From Isurus oxyrinchus (lineage: Eukaryota), in NCBI GenBank assembly GCA_026770705.1, contig JANJGN010000071.1:1612001-1676000 (forward strand): a stretch of DNA of 64,000 nt. Reading direction: 5' to 3'. Shown here one piece after another: positions 2,092 to 49,783 of the stretch. Both the position numbers and the translations under genes were made by a program. Every line of letters starts with the position of its first letter. The stretch's first letter is position 1. Under the pieces are notes generated by a model. It was not told where the DNA came from. It did no database searches and worked only from the letters and a program-made list of their open reading frames with translations.

Positions 2092-2340
2092 TCAGTTTCT
2101 CTTGAATCTGATCTGTGCGTATTCCGTCTGCTCTTCCCTGTGGACAGACCCATCACCACTGGGCACCCTGAAGACTTGGGGATTGGCGTAGAGAAACTCG
2201 TCGGGATTGTCGGGGTTCCCATGTCCAGCATTGCCTCCCACTGCACATTCAGAGACACCCCGGGGAGCTGGGGTCTCCCCCTCGCTAGTTGTGTCTCTGG
2301 TTGTGTTCCGGGGCTCAGTAATCAGCACGTTCTGTTTACC
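2092..2340 (-). other. Orphan paralogous terminal cytoplasmic exon (FLYANP / TEYAQI)
   Basis: Same length/acceptor/frame as 21858-22106; downstream 1235-1385 is homologous to the main gene's 3' flank 21675-21830. Confidence 0.8.
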
Positions 2341-2895
2341 CTACAGAGAAATGGAAACAGAAGGCATCCTCACATCATTTACTGGCACTGATAGGGTTAA
2401 AATATTCTGCAGCCTCGTTAGTGTCAGTCGTGGGTCAGTGGGTTTAACCCTCTCTCACATGTCTTATGAAAGAAAACGCCTATGGCAGTGCAGTGCTCCC
2501 TCAGTACTGACCCTTCGATAGTGCAGCACTTCCTCAATGCTGACCATCCAACAGTGCAGCACTCCCTCAGTACTGACCCTCCGACAGTGCAGCGCTCCCT
2601 CAGTACTGACCCTCCAGCAGTGCAGCGCTCCCTCAGTACTGACCCTCCGACAGTACAGGTCTTCCTCAGTACTGACCCTCTGACAGTGCAACACTCCCTC
2701 AGTACTGACCCTCTGACAGTGCAGCACTCCCTCAGTACTGACCCTCTGTCAGTCTCGCACTCCCTTGGTAATGGCTCTGGCGAGTGTCGGCTTGGATTCT
2801 GCACTCAGGTGCCTGGTGTGAGGCTCAATAACATGAATCTTGTAATCAGAGAGAGGATGAGAGAGAGAGAGAGAGATGAAGGGTCAGAGACTGAG

Positions 2896-3653
2896 CGTTA
2901 TGAATCTATTAATGTATGTATTGTAATTGGAAATTGTCTTTTTAAACAGAGGTTTAGTCTGTGGGTGTGTGTGTGTGTGTTTTAATTGGATTAAAGCCAG
3001 CCGGTCTGGGTACTTTTATGTATAGTAGTTTTGAGATGTAAACAAAGAGGTAAAGAGGCATATTGCATTTTTAAAAGGAGGATTCAAAGCCTGGGAGTGA
3101 ATTCTTAAACCAATCAATGTTTATATTACTAATAAAATTGATACTATGAAACGGGATTTATAGTTAGAAGAGATGGAGATCAAAGGTCCTGATGATACAA
3201 TGAGAATTTACATTCAAAGAGAAGAGCTGGGTATAACTTGAGCAGTTTTGTGTGTGCAGAGCAGAGGCTTGTAACATCAAAGCAGCTGTAAGCCTACACC
3301 TGTCTGCAAAGGAACCAAAGTGAAAGGAACCTCATTTGGAATTTGTGAGGTGAAAATGCTTCGCTTGGAATCTGCTTAAAGTCTATGGGTTGTCTTAGAG
3401 GACGTTAGTTTGGGAATTTGCTAAAAAGTTATGATAGAACTAGCTTGCAGCCATGTGCATATGATTAACTTGTGAAAATTAATAAATGTCTCATGTAGTT
3501 TGATATAAACCCATCTCAAGAACTGATGGTCTTATTCCTGAATTTAGAGCTGTATCTCAAACATTCCACTGGGAAATATAGGTTATGACAATTGTTTAAA
3601 GTTTCCCTCTGGGATTTTAAACAACAGCCTTTACCAGTTGCTGTGTCATAACA
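2896..3653 (+). mobile_element. Solo LTR-like element in the intron between orphan cytoplasmic exons
   Basis: Inverted termini (C)GTTATGA...TCATAACA; absent from the homologous intron at ~22950; same family as 43449-44265. Confidence 0.7.
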
Positions 3654-3788
3654 GAGAGACAGCATGATACTGAACCATTGCTGACTCCACAGGTACAAAT
3701 CAGTGGGTAACTGGGCTGGGAATCTGGGACATGTGTTGTCTACACACTGAGATAGAAGCTTTGGAGTGAGTGTAAACAGCTCCTGTAC

Positions 3789-3870
3789 CTGGTGTTTCAC
3801 AGAGAGTGGACTGGGGGTCAATACAATGTCACTGGTCCCTGAAACTCTCTCCTCCATCGCTGTTTTTCTC
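3789..3870 (-). other. Orphan paralogous cytoplasmic exon 1
   Basis: 82-nt homolog of 23126-23207 with intact AG and GT. Confidence 0.78.
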
Positions 3871-3999
3871 CTGTAATAACAAAATATCACACTGTGGTTA
3901 TCATATAGCAGAGAGTCAGTGTAGCACAGACACAGAGCCCACTGTAATCTTAGACCAACGACTGGGACTGTCTCTTTAAATCAGTTCTATACAAAGCAC

Positions 4000-4470
4000 A
4001 GAATCAAGAAGCTTGACACCATCCAGGACAAAGCAGCCCGATTGATCTACACCCCATCCCCCACATTAAACATTCACTCCCTCCACAACGAACACACAGT
4101 GGAAGCAGTGTGTGTACCATCTACAAGATGCACTGCAGCAACTCAGCAAGGCTCCTTCAACAGCACCTTCCAAACCCACGACCTCTACCATCTAGAAGGA
4201 CAAGGGCAGCAGACACATGGGAACACCACCACCTGGAAGTTCCCCTCCAAGCCACTCACCATCCTGACTTGGAAATATATCATCGTTCCTTCACTGTCAC
4301 TGGGTCAAAATCCTGGAACTCCCTCCCTAACAGCACTGTGGGTGTACCTACACCACATGGACTGCAGCGGGTCAAGAAGGCTGATCACCACCACCTTCTC
4401 AAGGGCAATTAGGGATGGGCATTAATGCTGGCATCACCAGTGACAGCCACATTCGATGTAAGAATTAAAA
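4000..4470 (+). mobile_element. LINE 3' end fragment (dup. ~48995-49465; same family on minus at 960-1210 and 45955-46205)
   Basis: TIQDKAARLI..SKSWNSLP..HHHLLKGN C-terminal ORF2 signature recurring in the window. Confidence 0.75.
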
Positions 4471-4789
4471 ATCTCACAGCTCAATGTATTTATTGGGATC
4501 CTCCTGCACACACGCCCTGTCGAAGGAGCCTTTGTGGTTCCATTGTTAATCGAAGCAGATCAGACTTACTGCAACTACTTGCATTTATATAGCACCTTTA
4601 ATGTAGCAAAATGTCCCAAGGCTCATCCGGGAATTGTTAGTCACATCTTCACCTGACTCTGAGGCACATGAGGAGATATAAGGGACAGGAGACCAACAGC
4701 TGAGTCAACAAAGTCAGTTATTAACGGGCATCTTAAAGGAGGAGCTGGAGATAGAGAATGAGTGACAGACACAGAAAGAAAGACAAAGA

Positions 4790-4826
<37 letters not shown>

Positions 4827-5023
4827 TGAATCTCTATCCCCAGTGGCTCAGCATCCAGTCCTCTCTGGAGAAGCATTTCATTCCAAACCACACCAACCGC
4901 AGCCCAATCGCATCCCTTCCTCCCTCTCTCCCCCTCTCCCCCAGTGCGTTGTTTCCTGTTCCCAGGAATCTCAATCACTACCCCCACCCCCACACCTCCT
5001 CACTCCCACTCCCCATTTCTCAT

Positions 5024-5272
5024 TCAGTTATGCTCGAACCTGATCTGTGCGTATTCCGTCTCCTCTTCCCTGTGGACAGACCCATCATCACTGGACATCC
5101 TCAATACTTGGGGATTGGCGTAGAGAAGGCCGTTGGGATTGTCGATGTGCCAATGTCCAGCATCGCCTCCCAATGCACCTTCAGAGAGACCCCGGGGAGC
5201 TGGGGTCTCCCCCTCACTAGTTGTGTCTCTGGTTGTGTTCCGGGGCTCAGTAATCAGCACGTTCTGTTTACC
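5024..5272 (-). other. Orphan paralogous terminal cytoplasmic exon (LLYANP / TEYAQI)
   Basis: Same length, acceptor and frame as 21858-22106; open to the homologous stop. Confidence 0.8.
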
Positions 5273-7506
5273 CTACAGAGAAATGGAAACAGAAGACATC
5301 CTCACATTATTTACTGGCACTGATAGGGTTAAATTATTGAGCAGCCTCATTAGTGTCAGTCTTGTCTCAGTGGGTTTAACCCTCTCTCTCATGTCATCTG
5401 AAAGAAACCACCTATGGCAGTGCAGTGCTCCCTCAGTACTGACCCCCCCGACTGTGCAGCACATCCTCAATAGTGACCCTCTGTCAGTCTCACACTCCCT
5501 CATTACTGACCCTCTGTCAGTCTCACACTCCCTCTGTACAGTGCAGCACTTCCTTAGCACTGACCCTCTGACAGTGCAGCACTTCCTTAGCACTGACCCT
5601 CTGACAGTGCAGCACTCCCTCGGAACTGACCCTCCATCAGTGCAGCGCTCACTCAGTACTGACCCTCCAACAGTGCAGCACTCCCTTAGCACTGACCCTC
5701 TGACAGTGCAGCACTCACTCAGTACTGACCCTCCATCAGTGCAGCACTCCCTTAGCCCTGACCCTCTGACAGTGCAGCACTCCCTCAGTACTGACCGTCT
5801 GACAATGCAGCACCCCCTCAGTACTGACCCTCCGACTGTGCAGTCCCCCGCCGGTACTGACCCTCTGACAGTGCAGCACTCCAAGACTGACCGTCTGACA
5901 ATGCAGCACCCCCTCAGTACTGACCCTCCGACTGTCCTGCCCCCCCGCCGGTACTGACCCTCCGACAGCTCGGTAATTTCTCAATTATGCCTGGTGGTCC
6001 TTTTAACTCAGAGCTGAGAGTTGCAGAGAATCGAGCACACATCCTGAACTGACACTTGCAGTGCAAGTACTGGGAGCGCGCTGGTCATTATCATGCTGCT
6101 GTCTGTGGGATCTTACTGTGCGCCAATGGCTGATTCTTTTCCCACAGTACATCAGTGACCTCACATGAAAGAAAAAAACCACTTGATTGTCTGCGAAACA
6201 CTTTGGGACGTCCTGATGTGTTGGAAGGCGCTAGAGAAATGCAAGTCCTCTTTGTCTTTCACTCGATCCTCTAAGGTGTCTGTTGATTAACCAGCCTCTC
6301 GGTGTTTGATGTAGGCCTGGTTATAAACAGTTAGAAGGATCAAATATCAAAAGTGCTTTGGCTGACAGTCAAACCGATTGTGCATTCGGAGAGATTAGAT
6401 ACGGTCTGCACACAATGACTCCAGTCTCTGGCACTGACTGCCGCCTGGGGTCTCCCTTCCACATAACACTCACAACTTGCATTTACACAGCGCCTCTGAT
6501 ATTGCAAAATGTCCCAGCCCACATTACCGGAGCGTAAATCAGAGAGAAGTCTAACACTGAGTCACATATGGAGATATTAGGGATAGGTGACCAAAAGCTT
6601 GGTCAAAGATGTCAGTTTTTAAGGAGCGTCTTAAAGGAGAGAGAGAGAGAGAGGCAGAGAGGTTAAGGGAGGGTATTCCGGAGCTCAGGGCCCCAGGCAG
6701 CTGAAGGCACGGCCACCAATGGTGGAGCGATGGGAATCAGGGGGACCCGGGAGATGCAGTAATGTCAGAGATTTTGGAGGAACATCGGGACCGGAGGAGG
6801 TGTTCTCCTGCTCCATATCTCTCTCTCTCTTCCTCTCATCCACTCCTCCTCTCCCTGTCTCTCTCTCTCCTACTCTTCCTCTCAATTGCCCTCTCTCCCA
6901 ATCTTTCACTCCTCTCTCCCTTTTCCTGTCTCTCTCCCTCTCTCTCCCCTGTCTCCTTCTCCCACTCTGTATCTCTCCCTCTCTCTCACACTATTTTTGT
7001 ACCTTTCGCTCACTCTGTAACTCTCCCTTTCCTGTTAATTTCTCTCTCTTGGACAATCTCTCTTCCCTTTTCACTTTCCCTCACTCCGCATCTCTTCTTT
7101 AATTTCTCCCTCTGTCACTCTCTCCCACCTATGTTCTTTCCCTTTCACCCCTCCCCGTCCCACTCTCTGTCTCTCTCTTCCAATCCCTCCCTCCCCCATT
7201 CCATCCCTCTCTCCGACTCTCGACTCCCAGCCTCTCTTTAACCCACTCCCAGGCTGGATCAGTCTCCCTCTCACTATTCCCGGCGTGGGTTACATTTAAA
7301 ATTCCTGTGGGGATATGTTCACTTCCTTGGAATTGCCTCTTCCCAGCTTTGCAAAAAAAGGGGTGGCGGGGGGGGTTCGATTTCAAACATGCCTCCTGAG
7401 TATAACCGAGACAGACTGCCACTGAAATCAGCTTGAAATCAGAAAACTTTCTGTGGAAGAAACGAGCAGGGAGAAACCTTAAAATAAGGAATGAATTTCC
7501 ACCTAC

Positions 7507-9946
7507 CGTGTCCGGGGAATCCACAGATTTCTCAATCGTCGAAGAACCTAAAGCAGTGTCAACCTGCAAAAAGAAAGAATTTATCAGGGAGAAAGTGAGA
7601 GGAGGATTGAGGGAGAGGGAGAGAGAGAGAGAGAGGTACAGGAGAGAGAGGGGGAGGAGGACAGACTTGCATTTCTCTAACGCCTTTCACCACATCCCAA
7701 AGCATTTCACAGCCACTGAAGGATGTTTTTGAAGTGCACTCACACTGTAGGAAATGTGGCAGCTGATTTGTGCACAGCAAGATCCCACAAATAGCAATGT
7801 GATCATGGCCTAGATCATCTGTTTTTGGTGATGTTGGGTGAGGGATAAATATTGGTCCCAGGACACCGGGGAGTACACCCCCTGCTCTTCCTCCAAATAG
7901 TGGCTGTGGGATCTTTCACACCCGCCCGAGAGGGCAGACGGGGGACTCAGTTTAATGTCTCATTCAACATTGTTGTGCTCCCTCAGTACTAACCCTTTGA
8001 CACTGCAGCACTCCCTCAGTACTAACCCTTCGATAGTGCTGCGCTCCCTCAGTACTGTCCCTCCATCAGTGCAGCTCTATTTCAGTACTAACCCTTCGAC
8101 ACAGCAGCACTCCCTCAGTACTGACCTCCGACAGTATAGCACTCCCTCAGTGCTGTCCCTCCAATAGTGCAACACTTCCACACTACTGACCCTCTGAGAG
8201 TGCAGCACTCCCTCAGCACGGAGCGTTGATCTACATTATGGGACTGAATACCCTGGAGTGAGACTCAGACCAGTGATTTAGGTAGGGTTGTGGGGGTTGG
8301 AGGAGGTTACAGAGATAGGGAGGGCTGTAGAGGCTGTAGGAGGTTACAGAGAAAGGGAGGGTTGTAAGGGCTGTAGGAAGTTACAGAGATAGGGAGTGTT
8401 GTAGAGGCTGTAGGAGGTTACAGAGATAGGGAAAGTTGTAGGGGCTGGAGGAGGTTACAGAGATAGGGAGGGTTGTAGGGGCTGGAGGAGGTTACAGAAA
8501 TAGGGAGGGTTGTAGGGGCTGGAGGAGGTTACAGAGATAGGGAGGGTTGTAGGGGCTGGAGGAGGTTACAGAAATAGGGAGGGCTGTAGAGGCTGTAGGA
8601 GGTTACAGAGATAGGGAGGGTTGTAAGGGCTGTAGGAAGTTACAGAGATAGGGAGGGTTGTAGAGGCTGTAGGAGGTTACAGAGATGGTGGAGTTGTGGG
8701 GGCTGGAGGAGGTTACAGAGGTAGGGAGGTGTGTAGGGGCTGTAGGAGGTTACAGAGATGGGGTGGTTGTGGGGGCTGGAGGAGGTTACAGATGTAGGGA
8801 GGGTTGTAGAGGCTGGAGGAGGTTACCAAAATAGACACTGCTGTAGGGGCCACAGTAGGTTACAGAGATAGGGAGAGTTATAGTGTGGAGAGGAGGTTAT
8901 AGAGTTCAGGAGGATTGTAGGGGCTGGAGGAGGTTACAGTGATTGTGAGGGTTGTGGGGCCTGGAGGATTTTACAGAGATAGGGAGGGTTGTAGGGTCTG
9001 GAGCAGGTTACAGAGATAGGGAGGGTTGTAGGGTCTGGAGCAGGTTACAGAGATAGGGAGGGTTGTAGGGTCTGGAGCAGGTTACAGAGATAGGGAGGGT
9101 TGTAGGGTCTGGAGGAGGTTACAGTGATCGTGAGGGTTGTGGGGCCTGGGGGAGGTTACAGAGATAGGGAGTGTTGTGGGGACTGTAGGAGGTTACATAG
9201 ATAGGGAGGGTTGTCGGGTCTGGAGGAGGTTACAGAGATAGGGAGGGTTATAGGGACTGGAGGAGGTTACAGAGATAGGGAGGGTTGTAGAGACTGTAGG
9301 ATGTTACAGAGATAGGGATTGTTGTAGGGGCTGGAGGATGTTACAGAGATAGGGAGGGTTGTAGGGGCTGGAGGAGGTTACAGAGATAGGGAGGGTTGTA
9401 GGGGCTGGAGGAGGTTACAGAGATAGGGAGGGTTGCACGGGCTGGAGGAGGTTACAGAGATAGGGAGTGTTGTAGGGGCTGGAGGAAGTTACAGAGATAG
9501 GGAGGGTAGTAGGGGCTGGAGGAGGTTACAGAGATAGGGAGGGTTGTAGGGGCTGGAGGAAGTTACAGAGATAGGGAGGGTTGTAGGGGCTGGAGGATTT
9601 TACAGAGATAGGGAGGGTTGTAAGGCCTGGAGGAGGTTACAGAGATAGGGAGTGGCTGAGGAGGGATTGAAAACAAGAATGAGAATTTCAGGGGAAATGA
9701 CAGAAGGAAATGATGTTAAATTCATAGAGGGCGACAATATTAAAGGCACGAACATAATAATATCAAACTGCGGAAGAGACCAGTCTATCTGGGTGGTAGA
9801 CGTAGAGTCATGTGCAAGAAACACCTCACCCAGAGGGACATCTCTTAGCTTAACCTCGACAAGGAGAAGAAGTGACTCAGCTGCAGGGAGAGCAGCAAAG
9901 TCAGAGTGAACAAGACAAGTCGCCATTTCATCTGGGAGCTTCCCAT
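7507..9946 (-). pseudogene. Duplicate of the unidentified signal-peptide exon pair (9854-9946 and 7507-7563), donor mutated GT->TT
   Basis: Same peptides as the 54/52-kb copy; the change at position 9853 destroys the donor. Confidence 0.4.
8280..9650 (+). repeat. 37-bp G-rich minisatellite (AGATAGGGAGGGTTGTAGGGGCTGGAGGAGGTTACAG)n
   Basis: Direct reading; paralog 53180-53995 is ~550 bp shorter. Confidence 0.95.
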
Positions 9947-10614
9947 CTCTGCCTGTCTCTTCTGATCTTCTGGCTCTGCTTTGATGCTTTGGTTTGTAAC
10001 TAGAGGAGCTTCCTGCTCTTATACCTGAAACACTTGAAGGGGACAGCCGGGGGCGGGTTGCTGTGTGGTATCACACCCATTTCTGGATATTGCAGGGTCG
10101 ATGTTCCCTGTCCCACTGGCCTGGGACCAGCAGTAAGGTCACTGGGACATTGACTGTCTGGCGCCGAGAACTATCAGTCCCTCCGCAACGCCCTTCACCT
10201 TGTGCAAATATGTGTTCATATTGATGCAACACAACATAGCAAAAACATAGGGGCTGGTTCTTATGTCGGCAAATCAGGTGAAGCGCACGCCCCCTAACCC
10301 CTTACTCCTCTCATTGCTCCTCCTTCCTGCCAGACACTTACTATTTTACAAATTGTGTGCGTTGCTTTTATTTCGGACAAGGGACCTCGAGGGGGAACTG
10401 ATTTACGCTGAGGTTTAGGGGTTAACAGCCATGTCATGTGTTGATCGGTCAGTGTTTACCATGTGGAGATTGTCTGTCACCAGCTTTGTTAATGGTTTAT
10501 CCAGGAACATTGAAGGGCATGAACGTTCTTGCTTTGTATGGAACAAGTTACCAACTGGGTTCAGTCATCGACTCAGACTCACATCAACATAAACTGGCTT
10601 CTGACAGGTAAGTT

Positions 10615-12799: not shown

Positions 12800-13295
12800 C
12801 AAGGGGCTGAATGGCCTCCTCCTGTTCCTGTGTAATGGGCATCAGTGGCTGAATGGGCCTCGTCCTTTTTCTGTGTAACAGGCTCAATAGGGCTGAATGG
12901 GCCTCCTCCTGTTCTTGTGTAACAGGCTCGAGGGGGCTGAATGGGCCTCCTCCTGTTCCTGTGTAACAGGCTTGAGGAGCTAAATGGGCCTCCTTCCGTT
13001 CCTGTGTAACAGACATCAGTGGCTGAATGGGCTTGCTCCTGTTCCTGTGTAACAGTCTTGAGGGGGCTGAATGGCCTCTTCCTGTATCTGTGTAATAGGC
13101 TCAATGGGCTGAATGGCCCCCTTCTGTTCCTGTGTAACAGTCTTGAGGGGGCTGAATGGCCTCTTCCTGTATCTGTGTAATAGGCTCAATGGGCTGAATG
13201 GCCCCCTTCTGTTCCTGTGTAACAGTCTCGAGGGGGCTGAATGGCCTCCTCCTGTTCCTGTGTAACAGGCTCAAGGGGCTGAATGGCCTCCTTCT
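12800..13295 (+). repeat. ~40-bp minisatellite (GGGCTGAATGGCCTCCTCCTGTTCCTGTGTAACAGGCTC..)n
   Basis: About a dozen diverged tandem units resembling a CR1 3' tail. Confidence 0.85.
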
Positions 13296-13529
13296 GCACT
13301 GTAAACTTGTTGTGATACTGTAACTGCCTCTTTGGTTTCATTCAGCTGAATCTTCAGCTCTTCAGTCTCTTCCTTGTATCTCTTGCCTTCCTCCTGGAAC
13401 ATTGGACATGGTTGGGTCTTCCCTGCCAACTGTTTCTTCAGTTTGCTCAGAGCGGAACAGAATTCGCTTTCTTTCTCTTCAGGATTTTCCAGTGGAACCA
13501 ACTCTGACCTGAGGGACACTTGCAGCCTG

Positions 13530-14670
13530 TGAGGATGCTTCAATTCTTCAAACTCATTCCGAGATACACTCTCATATTCCCCCAGCAACTCAGCAACTCC
13601 TCCAGTGAAACATTTCAGAGCAGCTGAGCTTGGTTTTCTGGAACCAGTCTCGGCCCAGAAGACTAGGGCCCTCACCTGTCGCTATGATCACTGGAAGCTG
13701 GGCTGTCTGCTGCCTGTAGGACACAGGTACTGGGACCAGGTCCTTTCCCTGTATGGATTCTCCAGTGTGTGTCTTCAGCTGATCCATTGTTTGCTCTAAA
13801 TTCAGCGTCTGGGTTCCTTCATTTAGCTGTTTAAATGTGGGCTCTTCCACCACTGTGTCTGAGGCTCCCGTATCTGCCCCATTACTAGTGGCTGCCCATT
13901 CACTTGGGTTGTGATGGTTATAGGTTCAGTTTTTACCACTGTGACATTGGACAGGGAATAGACATCGGTATCAGCAGCTTCAGGCTCTGTGATATTATTC
14001 ACTTCCATCATGTTGGTGCACTGCCTGATGGGCTGTCTCGATTTCACCCTGCATTGCTTTATTACCCGCCCCATTCTTGTGGCAGTGATGGCATTCTGCT
14101 CCCTTGAACCTGCAGGTGTCCGGTACGAGCTCACTCCCCCCCACATCGAGAACAGGCCAACTTCGGAGTTGCTGCTGAAATACTCCCACGAAACCTTTTA
14201 GTTTCTGGAGCGGCAGAGACTGTCTCTCGCTTGGCGGCTGTCTCTCTCTCTCTCTCTCTCTCTCTCCAGTTTGAGCCTCACGCCCGGTGGTTGTTTCCTG
14301 TCCCAGCTGAGGACTGGTGCCATGTTGTACATCCTGTAAATCCCGCCAGTCTCTCCCAGCACTTTCCATGCCTGGCGCTATTTCCATGGTGCGCTTCAAA
14401 TCGATGTCGTCTTCTGCAAGTAAACGGCTCTGAATGGCGTTGGGGTGAACGACACAAACCAATCGGCCCCGCAACATGTCATTGAGTGTGTCTCCGAGGT
14501 CCCAGTGCTCAGTCACCTGCTTCCACTTCACTGTATAGGTTGCGATGGACTCACCCGGGGCCCTTACTCTGGAGTTAAACTTAAACCTCTGCATTATTAC
14601 CCACGGCTTCAGCTGAAAACACATCTTCATGAGGACGACTAATTGGTGAAAAGATTTAGAATTGGGTGTA
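13530..14670 (-). mobile_element. Degenerate Gypsy/Ty3 LTR-retrotransposon gag-protease fragment
   Basis: QRFKFNSRVRAPGESIATY, LNDMLRGRLVC..IQSRLLAE, zinc knuckle CRFKGAECHHCHK, VNGQPLVM.., GPSLLGRDW; several frameshifts. Confidence 0.85.
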
Positions 14671-15823
14671 ATACACGTCACTGTCTTCAGCTCTGAGACT
14701 GTCAATCCTCACCAAACAATTCTTCCCTTCCAAGTTCCCAATTATTTTAGCACGTCCCACGAATGTGGCCACCCCATAATTGGGATCTTTGGTGTATGTG
14801 ATGGTATATTTCCATCTATACCAATATTTATACCAAGCTCCGTGCAGTGCTGTGTAAGAGTGGGAAGGAAAGTCAAAGCTACACGGAATAACCACACAAG
14901 AGCTGCTGATGGCCCTCCGAGGCAGCGCCTTCATAGACCATCCCTCTGACGTCACTCCTGAAAGGCAACGAGGGAGGGGACTGAACATCAAAAAGCAGAA
15001 TATTACTTCAATGGAGAGAGGCAGCAGAATGCGGTACAGAGGGATCTGGGTGTCCTTGTACATGAATCACAGAAAGTCAGCATTCAGGAACAGCACAGAA
15101 TGAGGAAGGCAAGTGGAATGTTGGCCTTTATTGCAAAGGGATGGAGTATAAAAGGAGGGAAGTCTTGCAACAGCTGCACAGGGCGTTGGTGAGATTGTAT
15201 CAGGAGCAGTGTGTACAGTTCTGGTCTCCTTACTTAGGGAGGGATAGACTCTGCATTGGAGGCAGCTCAGAGGAGGTTCACTGGGCTGATTCCTGGGATG
15301 AAGGGGGTTTGTCTTATGAGGAAATGTTGAGCAGGTTGGGCCCTGTATCCATTGGAGTTTAGAAGAATGAGAGGTGATCTTATTGAAACATATAAGATTC
15401 TGAGGTGGTGGGGGGTTTGACAGGGTGGATGCTGAGGGGATGTTACCCCTTGTGGGGGAATCCTGTGAAGCAATAAGGATGTTTTACTGCATTAAAGGTG
15501 CTGTATAAATGCACTGTCATTCCTATTGAAACAAGCTCTCTGATGCACAAACAGAAAATGCTGGAAAAACTCAGCAGGTCTGACAGCATCTGTGGAGAGA
15601 GAAACAGAGTTGTTGTTTCGAGTCCGTATGAGGCTTTTGCTTTTGCTAAATTCTCTGACTCGCTATTCGCTCACTCTCTGTGTGATCACTAACCCTGTTC
15701 TCTAAAATTAAATGTTCACTTCCTCATTCCAGGAAAGAATCCAATTCCCTGAGTTCCGATCAGTAATGAATTTGTACCTTGCAGCAAGCTGATGAAGATC
15801 AATATCAGACCGACCTCTCCCAT
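14656..15823 (-). pseudogene. Second Siglec gene relic: leader exon (15778-15823, MGEVGLILIFISLLQ|G) + 3'-truncated V-set exon (14957 down to ~14670)
   Basis: Phase-1 leader and V exon with intact splice sites. GWSMK..SCVVIPCSFDFP..HGAWY..GNLEGKNCLVRIDSLRAEDSDVYY then runs into Gypsy gag and stops at 14656. No C2/TM exons found downstream. Confidence 0.82.
15060..15470 (+). mobile_element. CR1 LINE 3' fragment
   Basis: EYKRREVLQQLHRALVR..EQCVQFWSPYL (decayed LYxxLVRPHLEYCVQFWSP). Confidence 0.8.
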
Positions 15824-16089
15824 CTTCAGTTCCTCATCTAAATGGAAATGATAAAGACAGAGACTTTTTCATAAATTGTCCCCAGCGTTTCTTCCTCAAA
15901 CAACAACTTGTGGTTAAATGGCACCTTTCAGTGAGTTAAACAGCCCCAGGGAATAAACTAATGTCAAGACAAGGAAGGAGAGATTGAGAAGGGACATCGC
16001 AAACCGATTCACCAAACACGGCAAAAATTCATTGTTCCCTCACTCCCTGTGCTGGGTGTCCAGCTTTTTCTCTCAGTGAGTTTAGTCCT

Positions 16090-21857: not shown

Positions 21858-22106
21858 TCAGTTTTTCTGGAACCTGATCTGTGCGTATTCCGTGTCCTCG
21901 CTCCTGTGCACAGTCCTGTCACCGCCGGGCAGCTTTGAAAAGTTGATGTTGGCGTAGAAAAGCTCGTCTGGTTTGTCGGAGTTCTCATGTCCAACATCGC
22001 CTCCCACTGGACCTTCAGAGAGACCCCGGGGAGCTGGGGTCTCCCCCTCACTAGTTGTGTCTCTGGTTGTGTTCCGGGGCTCAGTAATCAGCACGTTCTG
22101 TTTACC
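21858..22106 (-). CDS. Terminal cytoplasmic exon with ITIM (LFYANI) and ITSM/ITIM-like (TEYAQI)
   Basis: ttctctgtag|GGT, 82 codons + stop; motif order as in CD33-type Siglec tails. Confidence 0.88.
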   Translation of the reverse strand, partial: GKQNVLITEPRNTTRDTTSEGETPAPRGLSEGPVGGDVGHENSDKPDELFYANINFSKLPGGDRTVHRSEDTEYAQIRFQKN

Positions 22107-25100
22107 CTACAGAGAAATGGAAACAGAAGACATCCTCACATCATTTACTGGCACTGATAGGGTTAAATTATTGTGCAGCCTCATTAGTGTCAGTCGTGTC
22201 TCAGTGGGTTTAAGCCTTTTTTCACTCTCTTTCTCTGTCTCTCTTTCTCTCTCGCTTTCTCTCTCTCTTTATAATTTAATCTCTATCACACTCCAACAGT
22301 GCAGCACTCCCTCAATACTGACCCTCTGACAGTGCAGCACTCCCTCAATACTGACCCTCTGACAGTGCAGCACTCCCTCAATACTGACCCTCCGACAATG
22401 CAGTACTCCCTCAGTACTGACTCTCTGACAGTGCAGCACTCCCTCAGTACTGACCCTCCAACAGTGCAGCACTCCCTCAATACTGACCCTCTGACAGTGC
22501 AGCACTCCCTCAATACTGACCCTCTGACAGTGCAGCACTCCCTCAGTACTGACCCTCTGACAGTGCAGCACTCCCTCACTACTGACCCTCCGACAGTGCA
22601 GCACTCCCTCAGTACTGACTCTCTGACAGTGCAGCACTCCCTCAGTACTGACCCGCTGACAGTGCAGCACTTCCTCAGTACTGATCATCCGACAGTGCAG
22701 CACTCCCTCAGTACTGACCCTCCGACAGTGCAGCACTCCCTCAGTAATGACACTCTGACAGTGCACAACTCCCTCAGTACTGACCCTCCGACAGTGCAGC
22801 ACTCCCTCAGTACTGACCCTCCGACAGTGCAGCACTCCCTCAGTACTGACACTCTGACATTGCAGCACTCCCTCAGTACTGACCCTCCGACAGTGTAGCA
22901 CTCCCTCACTACTGACATCAGGTGCCTTGTCATTATTGTGTTCAGATTTCTGGTCAAAGAGCGAGTGATGGAGGGTGACAGCGGCTGGGAGCGAGAGACA
23001 GTGCTGACCACTGAGCCATTGCTTCACAGGGAGATATCTGTGTGTAACCCGGCTGGGAATCTGGGACACGTGTTGTCTACACACTGAGGTTGAAGCTTTG
23101 AAGTGAGTGTAAACAGCTCCTGTACCTGGTGCTTCACAGAGAGTGACCTGGGGTTCAATGCAATGTCACTGGTCCCTGAAACTCTCTCCTGCGTCGCTGT
23201 CTTTCTCCTGCAATAACACAATATCACACTGTGGTTATCATATAGCTGAGAGTCAGTGCAGCACAGACACAGAGACCACTGTAACCGTACAGCAACGGCT
23301 GGACTGTCTCTAGTTCCAATAAGGGGTATCAGCGTGACATCACTATAATGGAAGTGTGTCATGTGATCCAATCTCAGTTTGACATTTGCTTTGAGCAGAG
23401 CACACACTCACAGCTCTGATGCCTTCAATCTTTCTCCATATGTATAACTGTTCTCGTGCCGAGTCTTGATAAACAAATCATTAACATTCTCACCAAATCC
23501 CCTATGAGTGATTGGTGTTTTCTGTCTTATACAGTAAATAAGCCTAAGGTATAATATCATTATAATGACACGCCATATCTTGGACCCCCCCCTCCACCCC
23601 TGCTCTTCCCCCCATAGCCCTTCAAATGTTCCCCCTTCAAGTATTTATCCAATTCCCCTTTTGAAAGATCCTATTGAATCTGCTTCCACCGCCCTTTCAG
23701 GCAGCACCTTCCAGATCACAGCAACTGATTATTATTCATCTGGATAACGGGCAATGAAAAACACTCTCTGGATCATAACGGATAAAGAGACCAGTTAGGG
23801 AGAGGCATCTGGCGCTTAACACAAGGGAAACAATCACCGACTTAAGGAAAGAACATTGAAGCAAATATTTATCCCGGAGTAATCGTGCAGAGTGAGGAAT
23901 CTCTGAGTCTCGTGATCGTTTAGCTGGATACAGGACAATGAAAGGTTCTCTCTGGATCAGAGTGGACACAGGGATCACTTACAGAGAGGGACCTGGTGCT
24001 GATCCCAAGGGAAACAATCATCGACTTCAGGAAAGAACATTGAAGCAAATGTTTATATTAAAATCAAGTTAAATCTTCAGACTTACTTTCTCACACAGAT
24101 GAAGATGAAGATTCCAGCCAGGAAAACACTCAACATGATCCCAGCCGTGAACAATCCTACTGTCCATTTACTGGAGTCTCTACCTGTAAAAACAGCCATT
24201 AATTACTGCACTACAGGTTTACAATGATGCTCCGATGTATCTCGAGAAGCGATACACTCACTCAGTGTTTAAATACTCATTCTCGGGCAATGCTGACATT
24301 TATTGTCCATCCCTAGTTTCCCCTTGAGAAGGTGGTGGGGGGTCTTCCTCCTGAACCACTGGTTTGTCCCAAACTGGGAGACCAGTTCAGAGGGCAGGTA
24401 AGAGTTAACCATGTTGGTGTCTGAGACTGGAGTCACATCCACATCGAGACATGCTTCCCTCCCTAAAGGGTATGTAGTCTCTACACATGTAACAACCAAC
24501 CTCACTGAAATAATCGACTATCAGGTCATTATCACACGGTGGTTTGCGGGATCTTGCTGTGCACAAATCAGTACCTGTGTTTCCTACATTACAAAAGTGT
24601 GCTCACTTCGATAATGCTTCATTGGCTGTTGAATGTTTAGTAATTTCTAAGCAATTTATGAATACAAGTGTTGCATTTCAAAGTAATCCATGTAACATTT
24701 ATATATATTTATCAATTAAAGAATGAGAAGTTCAGCAATTAAAAGGGTTGTTCAGGACAGTTAGAGAGAGAAAGGTCGTCAAGTATGGAGATTGGAAACG
24801 AAGACCTGACAGCCTTGTCCTCACAACCATTGAAGGAGAAACTGAGAGCAAAAACAGAAAGGGAGAGGAAAAATTGGGTGTGTGGATAACGTGGACTGAG
24901 CGAGGATTGAAGAAAACTGGATTAAAAACAACACGATCCCAATGGCTCCACGGAGACCACGGAGAGAACAAACAAACAAATGTATCTCCACACTCACGTT
25001 CCACAGTGATGGTTATGAACCCCTCCACTGCTCCATGTTCATTCTCTGCCACACACTGATAGTCTCCAGTGTCCCTGGATGTAACGTGAGGAATCACCAA

Positions 25101-25969
25101 CCACAGCTCATTGTTGGAACTTGTTCTGTTCATTGGGACATTAAGATGTCGCCACGTCAGGTTAGAAGCTGGGAAGCTCTCGACAGAGCAGATTATCATT
25201 GTAGAATTCCCCTCAATTATATTGATCGATGAAGCGTTAATCATATCAAGAGAAGTAAATGAGAGATTCTGTGGAGCATCTAAGAACAAATCAAGTGTTT
25301 AAAAGTGAGCAAGCACAGTTTACAGCAAGACTCCATGCATCATCTCTCTGTATCTGATGTCTGTATGCATAGCCAGGTCCCTCCACTCCATATAACTTCC
25401 ATTGTCAAATTTATAGTGGGCACTGCCTATGTAAACAGTCAAACTGCAGTTACATTCTCCCAACAGTAGAGGTGCTGTCCACCTAGAATGCAAGAAACTT
25501 TCACATCCTCAGGATATACCCAAGGGCTTGACAGGCAATGATTGTATTTGATTGATGGAGCACTGAGGGGTAAATCTACAATTCTCTGTTCAGGAGGTTG
25601 CTCATCCAATTCAGGGTCTTGTTGATCTGGAGTTTACCTTCCTTCAACACAGAATCAGAGCTGATACCGAGACTCCAGTGCAGCACTGAGAGAGGACAGG
25701 GAACTCACACATGTGTTTGTGTTTGTGTGTTTTAGTATGTTTGTGTTTCTGCACAAGAGAGTATGTTTATGTGTGCGTGTGTGTATGTGTTTGTGCATGT
25801 GTGCGTGTGCCTGTTTGTATACATCTGTGCATGAGTGAGTGTGTGCATGTGTATGTCTATGTGTGTGCACATGTGACTGTGTGTGTGAGTTGAGTGTGTG
25901 TGTGTTTCTGTGTATGTGTTTCAACATGCATCACTGTGTGTGTAAGTGTGCGTGTATGTGTCTACACAT

Positions 25970-26017
<48 letters not shown>

Positions 26018-39600: not shown

Positions 39601-42359
39601 TTCACACCCAGGGCCCCAGAGCATCACCCGGGGCCTCTGGAATACTAGCCCAGTGACAATACCTCTCTGCTACCGCTTCCCCTTAGTGAAGCCAGTCTTC
39701 CACTCAGAACTCCCCCCATTATCACCGTCATGAATCACTAATTAGTCTAACATTCCTGTCTGCTCTTCAACACAGCTGATTGGCTAATCTGATTCAATCT
39801 GATTGGTGTTCATTCCCTGTTCAATGTTTAAGGAATCACCAATCACTCGTCCTCTAGTTATTCTCCTGCCCACAAGAGGGAACATTCTCTGTCTACCCAG
39901 TCAATCAAAACCTTTCATCTAAACCTAGTGGTGCTTGAGTATATAGTCGGGAATCCAGGGCAATGGAGCCTCAGGAGAAGAGATGGAAACCCTGTGAGGT
40001 GGAACGTCACTGAGGCCATCCGAGTTGAAGCAACTTTTGGAGAGAATTCCAAGGCAAGATCTTCGAAGTTGAAGACTGGAATCCCTCATGAGAGAAACAG
40101 AGTTTCAGTGAGATTGGTTGACAGACAGTGTTCACTGATGTCCGGGTGGGTTGTTGTGAAATCCATGGGCTCTATCTTGGTCGCGTTTACAATTTAATGA
40201 GTAATGTGGCTGTGAGACCACAGTTTGCCTGTTAATTCACATGAGCTCATATTAATCCAGAATGTTAGGGTATAAGGTGGATATTGTAAATTATTTTATC
40301 TTTCTGAGCTGGTTTAGTAAAGTTTATTTTTGTTTGTTTAAAAGCCATGGAATCTTGTAGCTCTATTCTCTTTGCAAGCGTCTTAAATCTCAAACCTCGT
40401 CTACTTGAAACAAAATATTATTGGTTCCTAACTGTAAATTACGAAAAAAATTGGGTGCCTGTTCCTCCATCAGCAACTCTTTAACCCTTTTATCCCTCCA
40501 AGTAATAAGATTTTGTAAATGTATTCATTCATGGGATGTGGGCGTCGCTGCCAAGGCCAGCATTTGCTGCCCATCTCTAATGTCCCGTGACATAATCTCT
40601 GTAGCAGAGTAGAGACAATCATGATCACTCAGGATATTTGACATCTATCCACAAGAGCAGCTTAGGCTTCCTTCTCTCTTTCAGTTATCTTACTCCCTTA
40701 TTGAAGTTTCTAGCATGGTGAGAACTGGATGGTTTGCTCGGACATTTCAGAGGAACCACGTTGCTATGAGTCTGGAGTCACATGTAGGTCAGACCAGATA
40801 TAGACGGCAGATTTCCTTCCCTAAAGGCCATTAGTGAACCAGATGGGTGTGTATGACAATCGATGATAGTTTCATGGTCTCCATTACTGAGACTAACTCC
40901 CATTAGTGTAAACAGAGTGAACAGTTTTCCATTGATCCCACCTTTCCCGTTCTCTCCGGTATTTTACACACTATTGCTCGATAATTTGATTCTGCCAAGG
41001 ACCCCTTGGAAAATCATGGACCCCAGTTAGACAACCGATGGAATAAGGAATCTCTTTGGATTCTCATTGTCTAAGGAATCTCTTCGGATCCTCATTGTCG
41101 AAGGAATCTCTTTGGATCCTCATTGTCTAATGGATTATTTCTGATCCAAACTCCATATTGTTGTATTGTTGATTCCAATGCAGCATTGTAGACTGACTTG
41201 TCCCCAAGCTCAGCACTGACCCTACTCCAGCAGAGACTGTGAAACACACTAACAAAGCGCCTCTAGCCTGAGCTCTGCATGTGTCGGAGGTGCCGTTGTG
41301 GTGGTTTCATGACTTTCAAAGATGCTGTTGTCATTTTTTTTGTTCAAACTGAACTGGGCCCCACATGAAGTGTTGATACCAGAAACCTCTTGTTCCCTGT
41401 CCTTCTGAAACATCTGTGATTGAACAGGATTCTGAAGATTTGCTGATAAGGTTCTTAAATTGTCTGATTGTTGATTGATACAACACAGGAGGAGCTCATG
41501 TGACTCATCGTGCATGTGCTGACTCTTTCCCAATTCCTCTCCAAAACCTTTCGCACATTCCTGCAAATTTCCCTTCAAGTATTTATCCAGTTCCCCTTCT
41601 GAAAGTTCCTGTTGAATCTGCTTCCACCACTCTTTCAGGCAGTGAGGCAATGGTCTCTCTCTGAGCTGCAAAGTGCTCAGATTCTGTGAAATTTAAACTA
41701 TGCAGCAGATCAGAGACACTCATGATAACTCAGAATATTTGACACCTTTACACCCAGTCAGCTTTGCCTTTCTTCTCTCTTTCAGTTATCTTGCTCTCTT
41801 ATTGAAGTATCTAGCAAGGTGAGAATGGACAGGAAGTGTGACACTGAACAACCTGTCTATTCTAGGAGCTGCTGTGTTGTCTTCATGGGAAGTTTTGAAT
41901 AAAGGCAGCAAAGGACACAAATTTCAGGTCATTGCTATCGGAGACCTCACATTAGGATAGGCTTCATCCCCCAGTTTTTATCCCTGCTTCTCTACTCAAC
42001 ACATCAATCCCCATCGCTCACTGACCAACGTCCGACAGCACCTGAATTTCAAGATTCTGCTCTCGCTGCTACAAACCTGCCTATCCCTGTAAACTCCTCC
42101 AGCCCCTACAACCCTTCAAGACCACTGGTCTACTCCAATTCTGCTGTCAGACAGGGAGTCAGTGTACATCAGTGAGCACAGGGGTGATGGGTGAACGGGA
42201 CTTGGCGTGAGTTTGTACACTGGATCACTGCTGAATCAGTTCCCTATCAGAGCTCAATAAGAATGATCTTTAACAAAGACTATTAACCATAAATCTGTCC
42301 GAGCTGACAATGGTATTACCTTGCAGAAGTGACAGGAGGAAGTAAGATTTCCCGATCAT
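21858..42359 (-). CDS. Siglec-family inhibitory receptor with 14 Ig domains (V + C2 + 12 tandem C2), TM, ITIM + ITSM-like tail; spliced, ~1504 aa
   Basis: Exons join in frame at canonical AG/GT sites: 42320-42359, 38825-39190, 38157-38453, 12 x 282 nt, 24087-24183, 23126-23207, 21858-22106 (total 4515 nt). Siglec hallmarks are in the V domain and the tail. Orthology (MAG/CD22/SIGLEC1/CD33-related) cannot be assigned by eye. Confidence 0.88.
22295..22915 (+). repeat. 33-bp minisatellite (CAGTACTGACCCTCTGACAGTGCAGCACTCCCT)n; other arrays near 2490, 5420, 7980, 18000, 19820, 37620, 47480, 50420, 52790, 58930, 61070
   Basis: ~19 tandem units; the unit is 11 codons long, explaining the spurious STDPLTVQHSL / VLRECCTVRGS ORFs. 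Confidence 0.95.
23126..23207 (-). CDS. Cytoplasmic exon 1 (RKTATQERVSGTSDIALNPRSLSVKHQ)
   Basis: 82 nt, ttattgcag|G ... CAG|gtacag; phase 2-0 bridges the TM and terminal exons exactly; paralogous copies keep the same boundaries. Confidence 0.78.
24087..24183 (-). CDS. Transmembrane exon (RRDSSKWTVGLFTAGIMLSVFLAGIFIFICVRK)
   Basis: tttttacag|GT ... AGAAA|gtaagt, 97 nt, phase 1-2; ~23 uncharged hydrophobic residues followed by a basic stop-transfer. Confidence 0.88.
24998..25279 (-). CDS. Tandem C2 Ig exon R12 (membrane-proximal)
   Basis: 282 nt, intact AG/GT, open frame. Confidence 0.88.
26041..26322 (-). CDS. Tandem C2 Ig exon R11
   Basis: 282 nt, intact AG/GT, open frame. Confidence 0.88.
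27301..27582 (-). CDS. Tandem C2 Ig exon R10
   Basis: 282 nt, intact AG/GT, open frame. Confidence 0.88.
28366..28647 (-). CDS. Tandem C2 Ig exon R9
   Basis: 282 nt, intact AG/GT, open frame. Confidence 0.88.
29455..29736 (-). CDS. Tandem C2 Ig exon R8
   Basis: 282 nt, intact AG/GT, open frame; NRTSCYNE carries an extra Cys. Confidence 0.88.
30522..30803 (-). CDS. Tandem C2 Ig exon R7
   Basis: 282 nt, intact AG/GT, open frame. Confidence 0.88.
31584..31865 (-). CDS. Tandem C2 Ig exon R6
   Basis: 282 nt, intact AG/GT, open frame. Confidence 0.88.
32672..32953 (-). CDS. Tandem C2 Ig exon R5
   Basis: 282 nt, intact AG/GT, open frame. Confidence 0.88.
33751..34032 (-). CDS. Tandem C2 Ig exon R4
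   Basis: 282 nt, intact AG/GT, APRNPS-type N-terminus shared with R11. Confidence 0.88.
35313..35594 (-). CDS. Tandem C2 Ig exon R3
   Basis: 282 nt, intact AG/GT, open frame (YQCEAEN variant). Confidence 0.88.
36232..36513 (-). CDS. Tandem C2 Ig exon R2
   Basis: 282 nt, intact AG/GT, open frame, near-identical to R1. Confidence 0.88.
37197..37478 (-). CDS. Tandem C2 Ig exon R1
   Basis: 282 nt, tttttag|ATGCACCA ... GTGGAAC|gtgagt; APQNLSI..ICSVESFPASNLTW..DTGDYQCVAENEHG..ITVE. Confidence 0.88.
38157..38453 (-). CDS. Siglec domain 2 (C2-type Ig) exon
   Basis: 297 nt, phase 1-1. DFTDKPTIFPAEIIAGKRVDVSCTFNTTC..LTW..SVLTLIPS..HHGHTLSCRV has the extra Cys expected for the D1-D2 disulfide. Confidence 0.9.
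38825..39190 (-). CDS. Siglec V-set (sialic-acid-binding) Ig domain exon
   Basis: 366 nt, phase 1-1. EWKGDTP..GSCVQIPCHYSYP..GVWF..GDCSLII..EDAGPYYFRIE shows the N-terminal Trp, CxxxxC, E-strand Cys and F-strand Arg typical of Siglecs. Confidence 0.93.
42320..42359 (-). CDS. Leader exon, coding part (MIGKSYFLLSLLQ|V); exon extends as 5'UTR to 42401
   Basis: ATG at 42359, hydrophobic 13 codons + 1 nt, donor CAAG|gtaata, upstream acceptor ctctttcag. Phase 1 joins the V exon to give ...LLQVGWSQEW. Confidence 0.8.
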
Positions 42360-47085: not shown

Positions 47086-47334
47086 TCAGTTTCGCTTGAA
47101 TCTGATCTGTGCGTATTCCGTCTGCTCTTCCCTGTGGACAGACCCATCACCACTGGGCACCCTGAAGACTTGGGGATTGGCGTAGAGAAGCTCGTCGGGA
47201 TTGTCAGGGTTCCCATGTCCAGCATCGCCTCCCACTGCACATTCAGAGACACCCCGGGGAGCTGGGGTCTCCCCCTCGCTAGTTGTGTCTCTGGTTGTGT
47301 TCCGGGGCTCAGTAATCAGCACGTTCTGTTTACC
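47086..47334 (-). other. Orphan terminal cytoplasmic exon, duplicate of 2092-2340 (LLYANP / TEYAQI)
   Basis: Two amino-acid differences from the 2092 copy; intact acceptor. Confidence 0.8.
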
Positions 47335-47889
47335 CTACAGAGAAATGGAAACAGAAGGCATCCTCACATCATTTACTGGCACTGATAGGGTTAAAATATT
47401 CTGCAGCCTCGTTAGTGTCAGTCGTGGGTCAGTGGGTTTAACCCTCTCTCACATGTCTTATGAAAGAAAACACCTATGGCAGTGCAGTGCTCCCTCAGTA
47501 CTGACCCTTCGATAGTGCAGCACTTCCTCAATGCTGACCATCCAACAGTGCAGCACTCCCTCAGTACTGACCCTCCGACAGTGCAGCGCTCCCTCAGTAC
47601 TGATCCTCCAGCAGTGCAGCACTCCCTCAGTACTGACCCTCCGACAGTATAGGTCTTCCTCAGTACTGACCCTCTGACAGTGCAGCACTCCCTCAGTACT
47701 GACCCTCTGACAGTGCAGCACTCCCTCAGTACTGACCCTCTGTCAGTCTTGCACTCCCTCGGTAATGGCTCTGGCCAGTGTCGGCTTGGATTCTGCACTC
47801 AGGTGCCTGGTGTGAGGCTCAATAACATGAATCTTGTAATCAGAGAGAGGATGAGAGAGAGAGAGAGAGATGAAGGGTCAGAGACTGAG

Positions 47890-48647
47890 CGTTATGAATC
47901 TATTAATGTATGTATTGTAATTGGAAATTGTCTTTTTAAACAGAGGTTTAGTCTGTGGGTGTGTGTGTGTGTGTTTTAATTGGATTAAAGACAGCCGGTC
48001 TGGGTACTTTTATGTATAGTAGTTTTGAGATGTAAACAAAGAGGTAAAGAGGCATATTGCATTTTTAAAAGGAGGATTCAAAGCCTGGGAGTGAATTCTT
48101 AAACCAATCAATGTTTATATTACTAATAAAATTGATACTATGAAACGGGATTTATAGTTAGAAGAGATGGAGATCAAAGGTCCTGATGATACAATGAGAA
48201 TTTACATTCAAAGAGAAGAGCTGGGTATAACTTGAGCAGTTTTGTGTGTGCAGAGCAGAGGCTTGTAACATCAAAGCAGCTGTAAGCCTACACCTGTCTG
48301 CAAAGGAACCAAAGTGAAAGGAACCTCATTTGGAATTTCTGAGGTGAAAATGCTTCGCTTGGAATCTGCTTAAAGTCTATGGGTTGTCTTAGAGGACGTT
48401 AGTTTGGGAATTTGTTAAATAGTTATGATAATACTAGTTTGTAGCCATGTGCATATGATTAACTTGTGAAAATTAATAAATGTCTCATGTAGTTTGATAT
48501 AAACCCATCTCAAGAACTGATGGTCTTATTCCTGAATTTAGAGCTGCATCTCAAACATTCCACTGGGAAATATAGGTTATGACAGTTGTTTAAAGTTTCC
48601 CTCTGGGATTTTAAACAACAGCCTTTACCAGTTGCTGTGTCATAACA
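47890..48647 (+). mobile_element. Solo LTR-like element (duplicate of 2896-3653)
   Basis: Same termini and sequence. Confidence 0.7.
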
Positions 48648-48782
48648 GAGAGACAGCATGATACTGAACCATTGCTGACTCCACAGGTACAAATCAGTGG
48701 GTAACTGGGCTGGGAATCTGGGACATGTGTTGTCTACACACTGAGATTGAAGCTTTGGAGTGAGTGTAAACAGCTCCTGTAC

Positions 48783-48864
48783 CTGGTGCTTCACAGAGAG
48801 TGGACTGGGGGTCAATGCAATGTCACTGGTCCCTGAAACTCTCTCCTCCATCGCTGTCTTTCTC
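48783..48864 (-). other. Orphan cytoplasmic exon 1, duplicate of 3789-3870
   Basis: 82 nt, intact splice sites. Confidence 0.78.
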
Positions 48865-49783
48865 CTGTAATAACAAAATATCACACTGTGGTTATCATAT
48901 AGCAGAGAGTCAGTGTAGCACAGACACAGAGCCCACTGTAATCTTAGACCAACGACTGGGACTGTCTCTTTAAATCAGTTCTATACAAAGCACAGAATCA
49001 AGAAGCTTGACACCATCCAGGACAAAGCAGCCCGATTGATCTACACCCCATCCACCACATTAAACATTCACTCCCTCCACAACGAACACACAGTGGAAGC
49101 AGTGTGTGTACCATCTACAAGATGCACTGCAGCAACTCAGCAAGGCTCCTTCAACAGCACCTTCCAAACCCACGACCTCTACCATCTAGAAGGACAAGGG
49201 CAGCAGACACATGGGAACACCACCACCTGGAAGTTCCCCTCCAAGCCACTCACCATCCTGACTTGGAAATATATCATCGTTCCTTCACTGTCACTGGGTC
49301 AAAATCCTGGAACTCCCTCCCTAACAGCACTGTGGGTGTACCTACACCACATGGACTGCAGCGGGTCAAGAAGGCTGATCACCACCACCTTCTCAAGGGC
49401 AATTAGGGATGGGCATTAATGCTGGCATCACCAGTGACAGCCACATTCGATGTAAGAATTAAAAATCTCACAGCTCAATGTATTTATTGGGATCCTCCTG
49501 CACACACGCCCTGTCGAAGGAGCCTTTGTGGTTCCATTGTTAATCGAAGCAGATCAGACTTACTGCAACTACTTGCATTTATATAGGACCTTTAATGTAG
49601 CAAAATGTCCCAAGGCTCATCCGGGAATTGTTAGTCACATCTTCACCTGACTCTGAGGCACATGAGGAGATATAAGGGACAGGAGACCAACAGCTGAGTC
49701 AACAAAGTCAGTTATTAACGGGCATCTTAAAGGAGGAGCTGGAGATAGAGAATGAGTGACAGACACAGAAAGAAAGACAAAGA

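Follow-up and report, generated by a model that had tools for sequence, protein, structure and literature searches.

Introduction

Unequal crossover is known to create chimeric genes in immune gene clusters, and the SIGLEC14/5 fusion is an example. In mammals, MAG and CD22 are neighbors of the hepcidin gene (HAMP). Among tyrosine motifs, YxN binds Grb2, and YxxP is preferred by the SH2 domains of Crk, Nck, and Abl. A wide form of the ITIM consensus admits isoleucine at Y+3, as in YANI; YANP fits neither this form nor the narrower one with leucine or valine at Y+3. According to the available portions of PMC13358205 and PMC11590682, the tails of Siglecs combine a proximal ITIM-like motif with a distal TxYxxI motif. 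Hepcidin genes, as laid out in the available text of PMC3325200, have three exons: one for the signal peptide, one for the prodomain, and one for the RX(K/R)R motif and the eight-cysteine peptide.

Here we analyze a 64,000-nt stretch of DNA from Isurus oxyrinchus (the window). A sequence-only reading had described two extra terminal exons and an extra cytoplasmic exon lying 17–20 kb downstream of a Siglec-like gene. It proposed that these could be alternative last exons of that gene, which would replace its ITIM with YANP, or else remnants of a deleted paralog. We consider it probable that this cassette is a transcribed, non-signalling passenger of repeated segmental duplication, with a two-unit Siglec-like tail in the place of hepcidin exon 3.

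Results

An intact Siglec-like gene in the window

Features are on the minus strand unless stated otherwise. The main Siglec-like gene is intact. It comprises a leader exon (42320..42359), a V-set exon with the Siglec arginine (39190-38823), a C2-set exon (38452-38156), twelve near-identical Ig exons (24998..37478; 12/12 open), a transmembrane (TM) exon (24087..24183), cytoplasmic exon 1 (23126..23207), and a last exon (21858..22106) that encodes YANI and TEYAQI and has a weak donor (GTTCCA). Downstream of the last exon, at a distance of 793–1085 nt, there are poly(A)-like hexamers. The twelve Ig exons make a very long stalk; among the paralogs, the number of Ig exons ranges from none to twelve.

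The V domain of the main gene aligns best with sialoadhesin, MAG, and CD33-type Siglecs (PDB 1URL/1OD7, 5LFR, and 2ZG1). Protein P0002 matches sialoadhesin with E = 3.8e-15 and with the F-strand arginine and three cysteines in register; we take this arginine to be the essential residue for binding sialic acid. For the Siglec-like genes, V-set and Ig_CD22 from Pfam scored above their cutoffs, and the closest protein matches were from white shark and basking shark. C2-set domains, a single TM segment, and a cytoplasmic tail are present both in the main gene and in the genes that donated the tails. YANI, with its isoleucine at Y+3, lies outside the L/V consensus for ITIMs in the available text of PMC13358205, and TEYAQI fits the TxYxxI/V consensus of the same text in 91 of the 92 tail exons that we read.

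Between the main gene and the cassette is part of a second class of Siglec-like gene, with a leader exon (15778..15840) that matches the N-terminus of P0009 and P0014 and a truncated V-set exon (14660..14958). The V exon is cut by a decayed insertion that resembles an LTR retrotransposon (13277..14659), with a weak match to gag-asp_proteas (E = 0.0037, below the cutoff). The same junction between V exon and insertion is found in 48 of 63 copies of the second class, and the other 15 are untruncated. By eye, V domains of this class (L010:3976-4330, P0009/P0014) have tyrosine at the position of the Siglec arginine. There is also a second class of TM exons, ~78% identical, with a lysine near the cytosolic end (G000:C52:2078436, 2144449, and 2220393; C1130; C646). 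We did not find a matching tail exon downstream of these, and they possibly belong to tail-less or activating receptors. On the plus strand of the window, an ITIM-like ELIYAEV followed by a stop (10404-10415 and 54733-54744) travels with the duplicated unit and may be due to chance.

A tail cassette without a TM exon

The cassette consists of two tail units. Unit 1 is a type A exon (5272-5024, 249 nt) with an AG acceptor, YANP, and TEYAQI. Both a splice joint and the sequence indicate an in-frame internal donor after position 5040 (5040/5039, GTTCGA), so that the exon's own stop (5026-5024) is read only if this donor is not used. Unit 2 begins with a cytoplasmic exon, cyt1' (3870-3789; 82 nt, phase 2 to 0), which has AG/GT ends and splice joints on both sides, and finishes with a type B exon (2340-2092, 249 nt) that encodes YANP, TEYAQI, and a stop. 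The donor site of exon B is dead (ATTCAA). Exons A, cyt1', and B share their lengths and phases with the main-gene exons (23207-23126 and 22106-21858) and contain no premature stops, and where the main gene reads YANI, both terminal exons read YANP. The earlier description of these exons thus stands, with slightly corrected coordinates, and so does its observation that the cassette has no adjoining TM exon: a TM query matched only 24087-24183 within the 64-kb window.

The whole cassette recurs at 50274-47086, inside a 45-kb tandem duplication whose copies are 97–98% identical. The upstream duplicate (57143-57512) lacks the leader, the truncated V exon, and the insertion that are present at 12.7–16 kb.

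The sequence-only reading had emphasized that these exons have no stops despite many substitutions. There are indeed no stops, but this is weak evidence for constraint. Exons A and B have 37 and 34 differences from the YANI exon over 231 sites, but only 13 and 10 differences from the nearest of 33 TM-linked exons of the YANP class. Given so few changes from TM-linked exons, the absence of stops is expected: the chance of remaining stop-free after that many random changes is 0.64 for exon A and 0.74 for exon B.

YANP is the common form in tails that are built in series

Across the genome, pattern matching identified 279 tail exons and 310 TM exons, or roughly 300 Siglec-like receptors, although uncollapsed haplotypes may have raised these counts and mismatches may have lowered them. 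On contig C52, the 84 tail motifs among the matches listed form 55 clusters, of which 41 have a TM exon no more than 6 kb away (23 single, 15 double, and 3 triple). The other clusters lie right after a 57-nt exon (5 clusters), ~21 kb after one (4 clusters), or neither (5 clusters).

We read 92 tail exons, a non-random set because the loci were mostly chosen from pattern matches, and found LYANPQ in 71 and YANIN in 15. YANP tails occur on intact TM receptors in this genome and in gene models from white shark and basking shark. So YANP is a standing motif of the family, and the idea of an ITIM converted specifically in the orphan exons does not hold. Both YANI and YANP fit YxN.

The tails of intact receptors have one to three copies of a two-exon unit. 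Among the 90 of 92 exons whose head could be assigned, a GT donor with G at +5 is present in every internal unit (40/40) and in no last unit (0/50); for one divergent exon among these 50, the site was parsed wrongly, and the paralogs are not independent. The junction between serial units keeps the frame (233 + 82 nt), and RefSeq models from white shark and basking shark (P0003-P0007) have the same junction. At one two-unit locus in white shark, isoforms X1, X2, and X6 include both units, X4 and X5 include the YANI unit only, and X3 has a frameshifted end. The serial junctions and these isoforms suggest that the units act in series and that skipping is optional within two-unit genes. Thus, splicing does appear to alter the tail motifs within one locus elsewhere in the family, as had been suggested for this one, but a role for the cassette as a switch is not supported.

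Hepcidin exons lie upstream of the cassette

Two hepcidin exons sit 4.6 and 2.2 kb upstream of the cassette. The coding part of exon 1 (9854..9946) has 31 codons, resembles a signal peptide, and is 94–95% identical to the hepcidin genes on contig C34; in this copy, its phase-0 GT donor is lost (TTAAGC). Exon 2 (7507..7563) is a 57-nt piece of the prodomain with phase 0-0 that is 90–93% identical to the C34 genes. The core promoter of hepcidin is also present (10019..10075), and its TATA-like box lies 77 nt ahead of the first ATG.

The identification rests on basking shark protein P0044, which is a hepcidin (PF06446, E = 1.5e-11). The N-terminal 50 residues of P0044 correspond to exons 9946-9854 and 7563-7507 of the window; the basking shark gene splices both exons in frame, and isoform X2 of that gene is hepcidin. 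We had considered whether 9946-9854 could be an activating TM exon that belongs to the second class of Siglec-like gene. This is ruled out because it is hepcidin exon 1, and in 20 of 20 copies there were no ectodomain exons before it. Similarly, the 57-nt exon is not a cytoplasmic exon of a Siglec, as none follows an intact V exon in the six such genes that we mapped.

Within hepcidin intron 2, there is the start of a minor exon (6287..6316) that has nine codons and then a stop, with a splice joint at 6315/7506 in run X1. This stretch is present in both C34 hepcidin genes (92–95% identity).

In a canonical gene, exon 2 would be followed by the third exon. In the fusion, the tail takes its place: neither RX(K/R)R, which is absent from residues 32-70 of the fused frame, nor the eight-cysteine exon 3 is present. 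The boundary can be located from sequence identity, as the locus matches an intron of one cluster hepcidin from 7600 to 5730 and TM-linked Siglec paralogs from 5727/5793 to 5030. Because identity switches at about 5730-5790, the join between hepcidin and tail falls in an array of a 33-bp satellite (5411..5968, strand undefined) that holds the probable crossover (about 5730-5830). An unequal crossover within this shared satellite likely put the tail where hepcidin exon 3 belongs.

Transcription would start at the hepcidin core promoter, and the basking shark model suggests that exon 1 is spliced to exon 2. However the locus might be regulated, the similarity to the promoters of canonical hepcidin genes takes in the TATA box but stops ~130 nt upstream, so hepcidin-like regulation cannot be assumed. 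A search for conserved iron or inflammation elements led to GGCGCC at -219, which is absent from the canonical hepcidin genes, so we rejected it. The available part of PMC8773737 gave no regulatory motif for comparison.

Copies of the fusion in the genome

The window holds a second copy of the fusion (47086..54290), and all of its splice sites are intact. Its exons are hepcidin exon 1 (54290-54198), hepcidin exon 2 (52361-52305), exon A (50274-50042), cyt1' (48864-48783), and exon B (47334-47086). Together, they give 714 nt and 237 codons with no internal stop. The predicted product of 237 residues has a signal peptide and four tyrosines but no TM segment and no convertase motif. Intact copies would yield this chain, and the signal peptide, whose cleavage is expected from homology to hepcidin, would route this chain, with its four tyrosines, to the secretory pathway. 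With a signal peptide and no membrane anchor, the product likely cannot signal, as its tyrosines would be kept away from kinases and SH2 proteins. The window's other copy is likely a pseudogene, because the donor of its exon 1 is lost.

We tallied 40 exons with the tail signature: 24 are headed by hepcidin exons, 10 are headless, and 6 are TM-linked. About 24 cassettes of this type thus stand behind hepcidin exons 1 and 2 and a TATA box. "EEQTE" was rejected as a signature specific to orphan exons because of those 6/40 TM-linked cases. In thirteen of the 24 fusions, no splice site is missing and the frame is open, and the phases fit exactly; one of these thirteen has only exon B. Ten are damaged: seven have lost the exon-1 donor, one has a stop, one has a stop and has lost an acceptor, and one lacks exon 1. 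The remaining fusion is cut by a contig end. The exon-1 donor is also lost in 9 of the 28 cluster hepcidins that we fetched. Separately, for twelve A-cyt1'-B cassettes (L141-L145, L147, L150, L151, L153, L156, L158, and L159), the preceding 5.5 kb contains no TM exon and no hepcidin exon.

There is no TM exon in any of 19 fusion loci (L062-L080) and no hepcidin exon at any of 20 TM-linked loci. In 20 of 20 sampled copies, the interval from the truncated V exon to hepcidin exon 1 is free of C-type Ig exons on the same strand. In a phylogenetic tree, the A exons with hepcidin heads group in a single shallow clade (8 rows, support 100/99) that is nested among the TM-linked YANP exons. The earlier suggestion of a remnant of a deleted paralog therefore had the origin right. 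To this we would add that the remnant of a beheaded Siglec paralog was joined to the 5' half of hepcidin and was then amplified.

Is the fusion a functional new gene? It might make a protein that consists of the tail only, is secreted, anchored by its signal sequence, or initiated internally and cytosolic, and serves SH2 proteins as a decoy or adaptor. The 13 of 24 copies that are intact and in frame are consistent with this, as is a spliced joint in run X1 (see below), and cyt1' has an ATG in a good context for internal initiation. In the fusion clades, pN/pS is 0.42 for exon A and 0.75 for exon B. These ratios come from only 7 and 18 variants, and the test has little power because the tails of intact receptors give 1.0–1.15; with intact tails near 1, dN/dS is uninformative as a test of function. 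On the other hand, the diversity of the tail exons (pi of 0.011–0.018) equals that of the longer introns (0.012; 20–28 copies), and 10 of 24 copies are damaged. Hepcidin exon 2 has just one variant in 57 nt across 28 copies, which is below most introns, but two non-coding stretches are equally invariant. So neither pN/pS, with its low power, nor the comparison of exon to intron diversity detected purifying selection on the fusion copies. A fusion protein of hepcidin and tail was absent among 16 homologs of the tail and 3 homologs of exon 1. As for a cytosolic product, the basic residues before the hydrophobic stretch and the ancestry in hepcidin would favor export. Overall, we think it unlikely that the fusion is a functional new gene.

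Splice joints in assembled reads

We compared contigs from four sequencing runs (4 of the 21 listed) to positions 1950-7700 of the window. That these runs are RNA is only a guess; X9 was flagged as probably DNA, and X1 and X2 are from one sample. The joint from the internal donor of exon A, which lies just past TEYAQI and ahead of the stop, to cyt1' (3869/5039) was seen in X1, X2, and X9 (3/4 runs). The joint from cyt1' to exon B (2339/3788) was seen in X2 and X9 (2/4 runs). Both have GT-AG ends, and both may derive from any two-unit paralog.

The joint from hepcidin exon 2 to a tail exon (2339/7506, also GT-AG) was found in X1 only (1/4 runs), in one contig with 26 letters on the short side. 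Exons A and B start alike, so the tail partner could be either of them. A second contig from X1 joins hepcidin exon 2 to the minor exon at 6316. Exon 2 is not covered in X9 and X11, to which we attach no meaning. Since no hepcidin exon is found at the 20 TM-linked loci, the joint between exon 2 and the tail is specific to the fusion loci.

If these joints came from other paralogs, processed copies, or chimeric assembly, and if many of the copies were duplicates of haplotypes or of the assembly, then the cassette would be a wholly silent remnant. Besides the uncertain nature of the runs, which are represented by assembled contigs, the 97–100% identity of the fusion copies and the missing exon-1 donor in the window's copy are compatible with this. 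Against it, the joint of exon 2 to the tail can come only from fusion loci and its ends are exactly GT-AG, and the copies differ by indels and deletions. We give this explanation a small chance, about as small as for a functional new gene.

Last and weakest is the original proposal, in which the upstream YANI receptor would bypass its own final exon in favor of exon A or B, 17–20 kb away, and so change its ITIM to YANP. Phases and splice sites are compatible, a YANI gene lies ~17–20 kb upstream of several copies, and basking shark has RefSeq models that look like read-through (P0010). However, there are poly(A)-like signals and a weak donor at the final exon of the main gene; a leader, a V exon, a promoter, and two hepcidin exons intervene; the nearest same-strand TM exon is 41–152 kb away in other copies; and YANP tails are already found on many intact paralogs, so we consider it very improbable. 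Upstream of the cassette lie a TATA box and hepcidin exons of its own, and in one contig hepcidin exon 2 is joined to the tail.

A large set of divergent hepcidin exons

Contig C34 carries two canonical hepcidin genes (G000:C34:15200603-15235743, L126-L129) whose exon-3 peptides are identical; Siglec-like V, C, and TM exons lie beside them. The two genes have the same exons 1 and 2 as the window, with 90–95% nucleotide identity. Beyond these, the cluster has 124 matches to exon 1, 119 to exon 2, and 86 to a divergent exon 3, with the latter on C52, C71, C121, C150, C189, and smaller contigs (e.g., L133-L140). In the cluster, the eight-cysteine exon 3 lies ~2.3 kb after exon 2, which is the place that exon A holds in the fusion.

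We read 13 of the exon-3 matches outside of C34. All 13 were open and had eight cysteines, with RQKR in 10 and RQNR in 3; the acceptor AG was missing in 2 of them. The peptides are ~51–55% identical to hepcidin from basking shark. Eight distinct cluster sequences of exon 3 have 12 non-synonymous variants and 1 synonymous variant among them. The cluster's exon-3 set is possibly a large expansion of antimicrobial-type hepcidins.

One could imagine that a lamniform shark evolved an amplified family in which the promoter and leader of hepcidin drive a four-tyrosine Siglec tail, and that the product, either secreted or acting in the cytosol as an SH2 decoy, tunes ~300 receptors from within a cluster of more than 80 diversified antimicrobial-type hepcidins. 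We regard this scenario as unlikely, and the preferred reading remains that of a non-signalling passenger.

Comparison with known systems

In the open-access literature, we found no publication on this cluster, on serial tails, on a fusion of hepcidin and tail, or on an expansion of hepcidins in sharks. The available portions of PMC13358205 do not mention sharks, those of PMC8502971 contain no shark data, and those of PMC8455134 name Siglecs only within a list. While a Siglec tail, a hepcidin, and a crossover chimera are known kinds of things, the serial-tail design, the satellite-joined fusion, and the hepcidin expansion were not found in print in that literature.

Like CD33-related Siglecs and those of the MAG/sialoadhesin type, the shark receptors have a V-set domain with the arginine and cysteine pattern, C2-set domains, a TM segment, and a tail with a proximal ITIM-like motif and a distal TxYxxI. 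They differ in their number (~300 TM exons in one genome), in that their tails are made of one to three tandem two-exon units, with a donor inside what was formerly the last exon, and in that most of the units have YANP instead of an ITIM. Tandem units let these receptors lengthen their tails and mix tyrosine motifs, and the strength of the donor tracks the position of the unit. The gene models from white shark (XP_041037215-221 and XP_041037157) and basking shark, which are automatic annotations, agree on the units, the serial junction, the presence of YANP and YANI, and the optional YANP unit. Unlike the window, none of the shark RefSeq models returned joins hepcidin exons to a tail.

The fusion shares exons 1 and 2 and the core promoter with hepcidin (HAMP, including the multi-copy HAMP2 of teleosts), but it lacks exon 3, the cleavage motif, and any cysteines. 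The ~86 divergent third exons beside two canonical genes are far above the copy numbers in the available text of PMC3325200. With so many of them, the split between hepcidin as an iron hormone and hepcidin as an antimicrobial peptide becomes testable in cartilaginous fish.

In our preferred reading, satellite-mediated exon shuffling brought together two immune genes that have no relation to each other, and the resulting product undergoes splicing. As in the SIGLEC14/5 fusion, a crossover in a tandem cluster would have placed the coding part of one gene under the promoter of another. The difference is that here unrelated partners were joined via a satellite, and the product has neither an ectodomain nor a membrane anchor.
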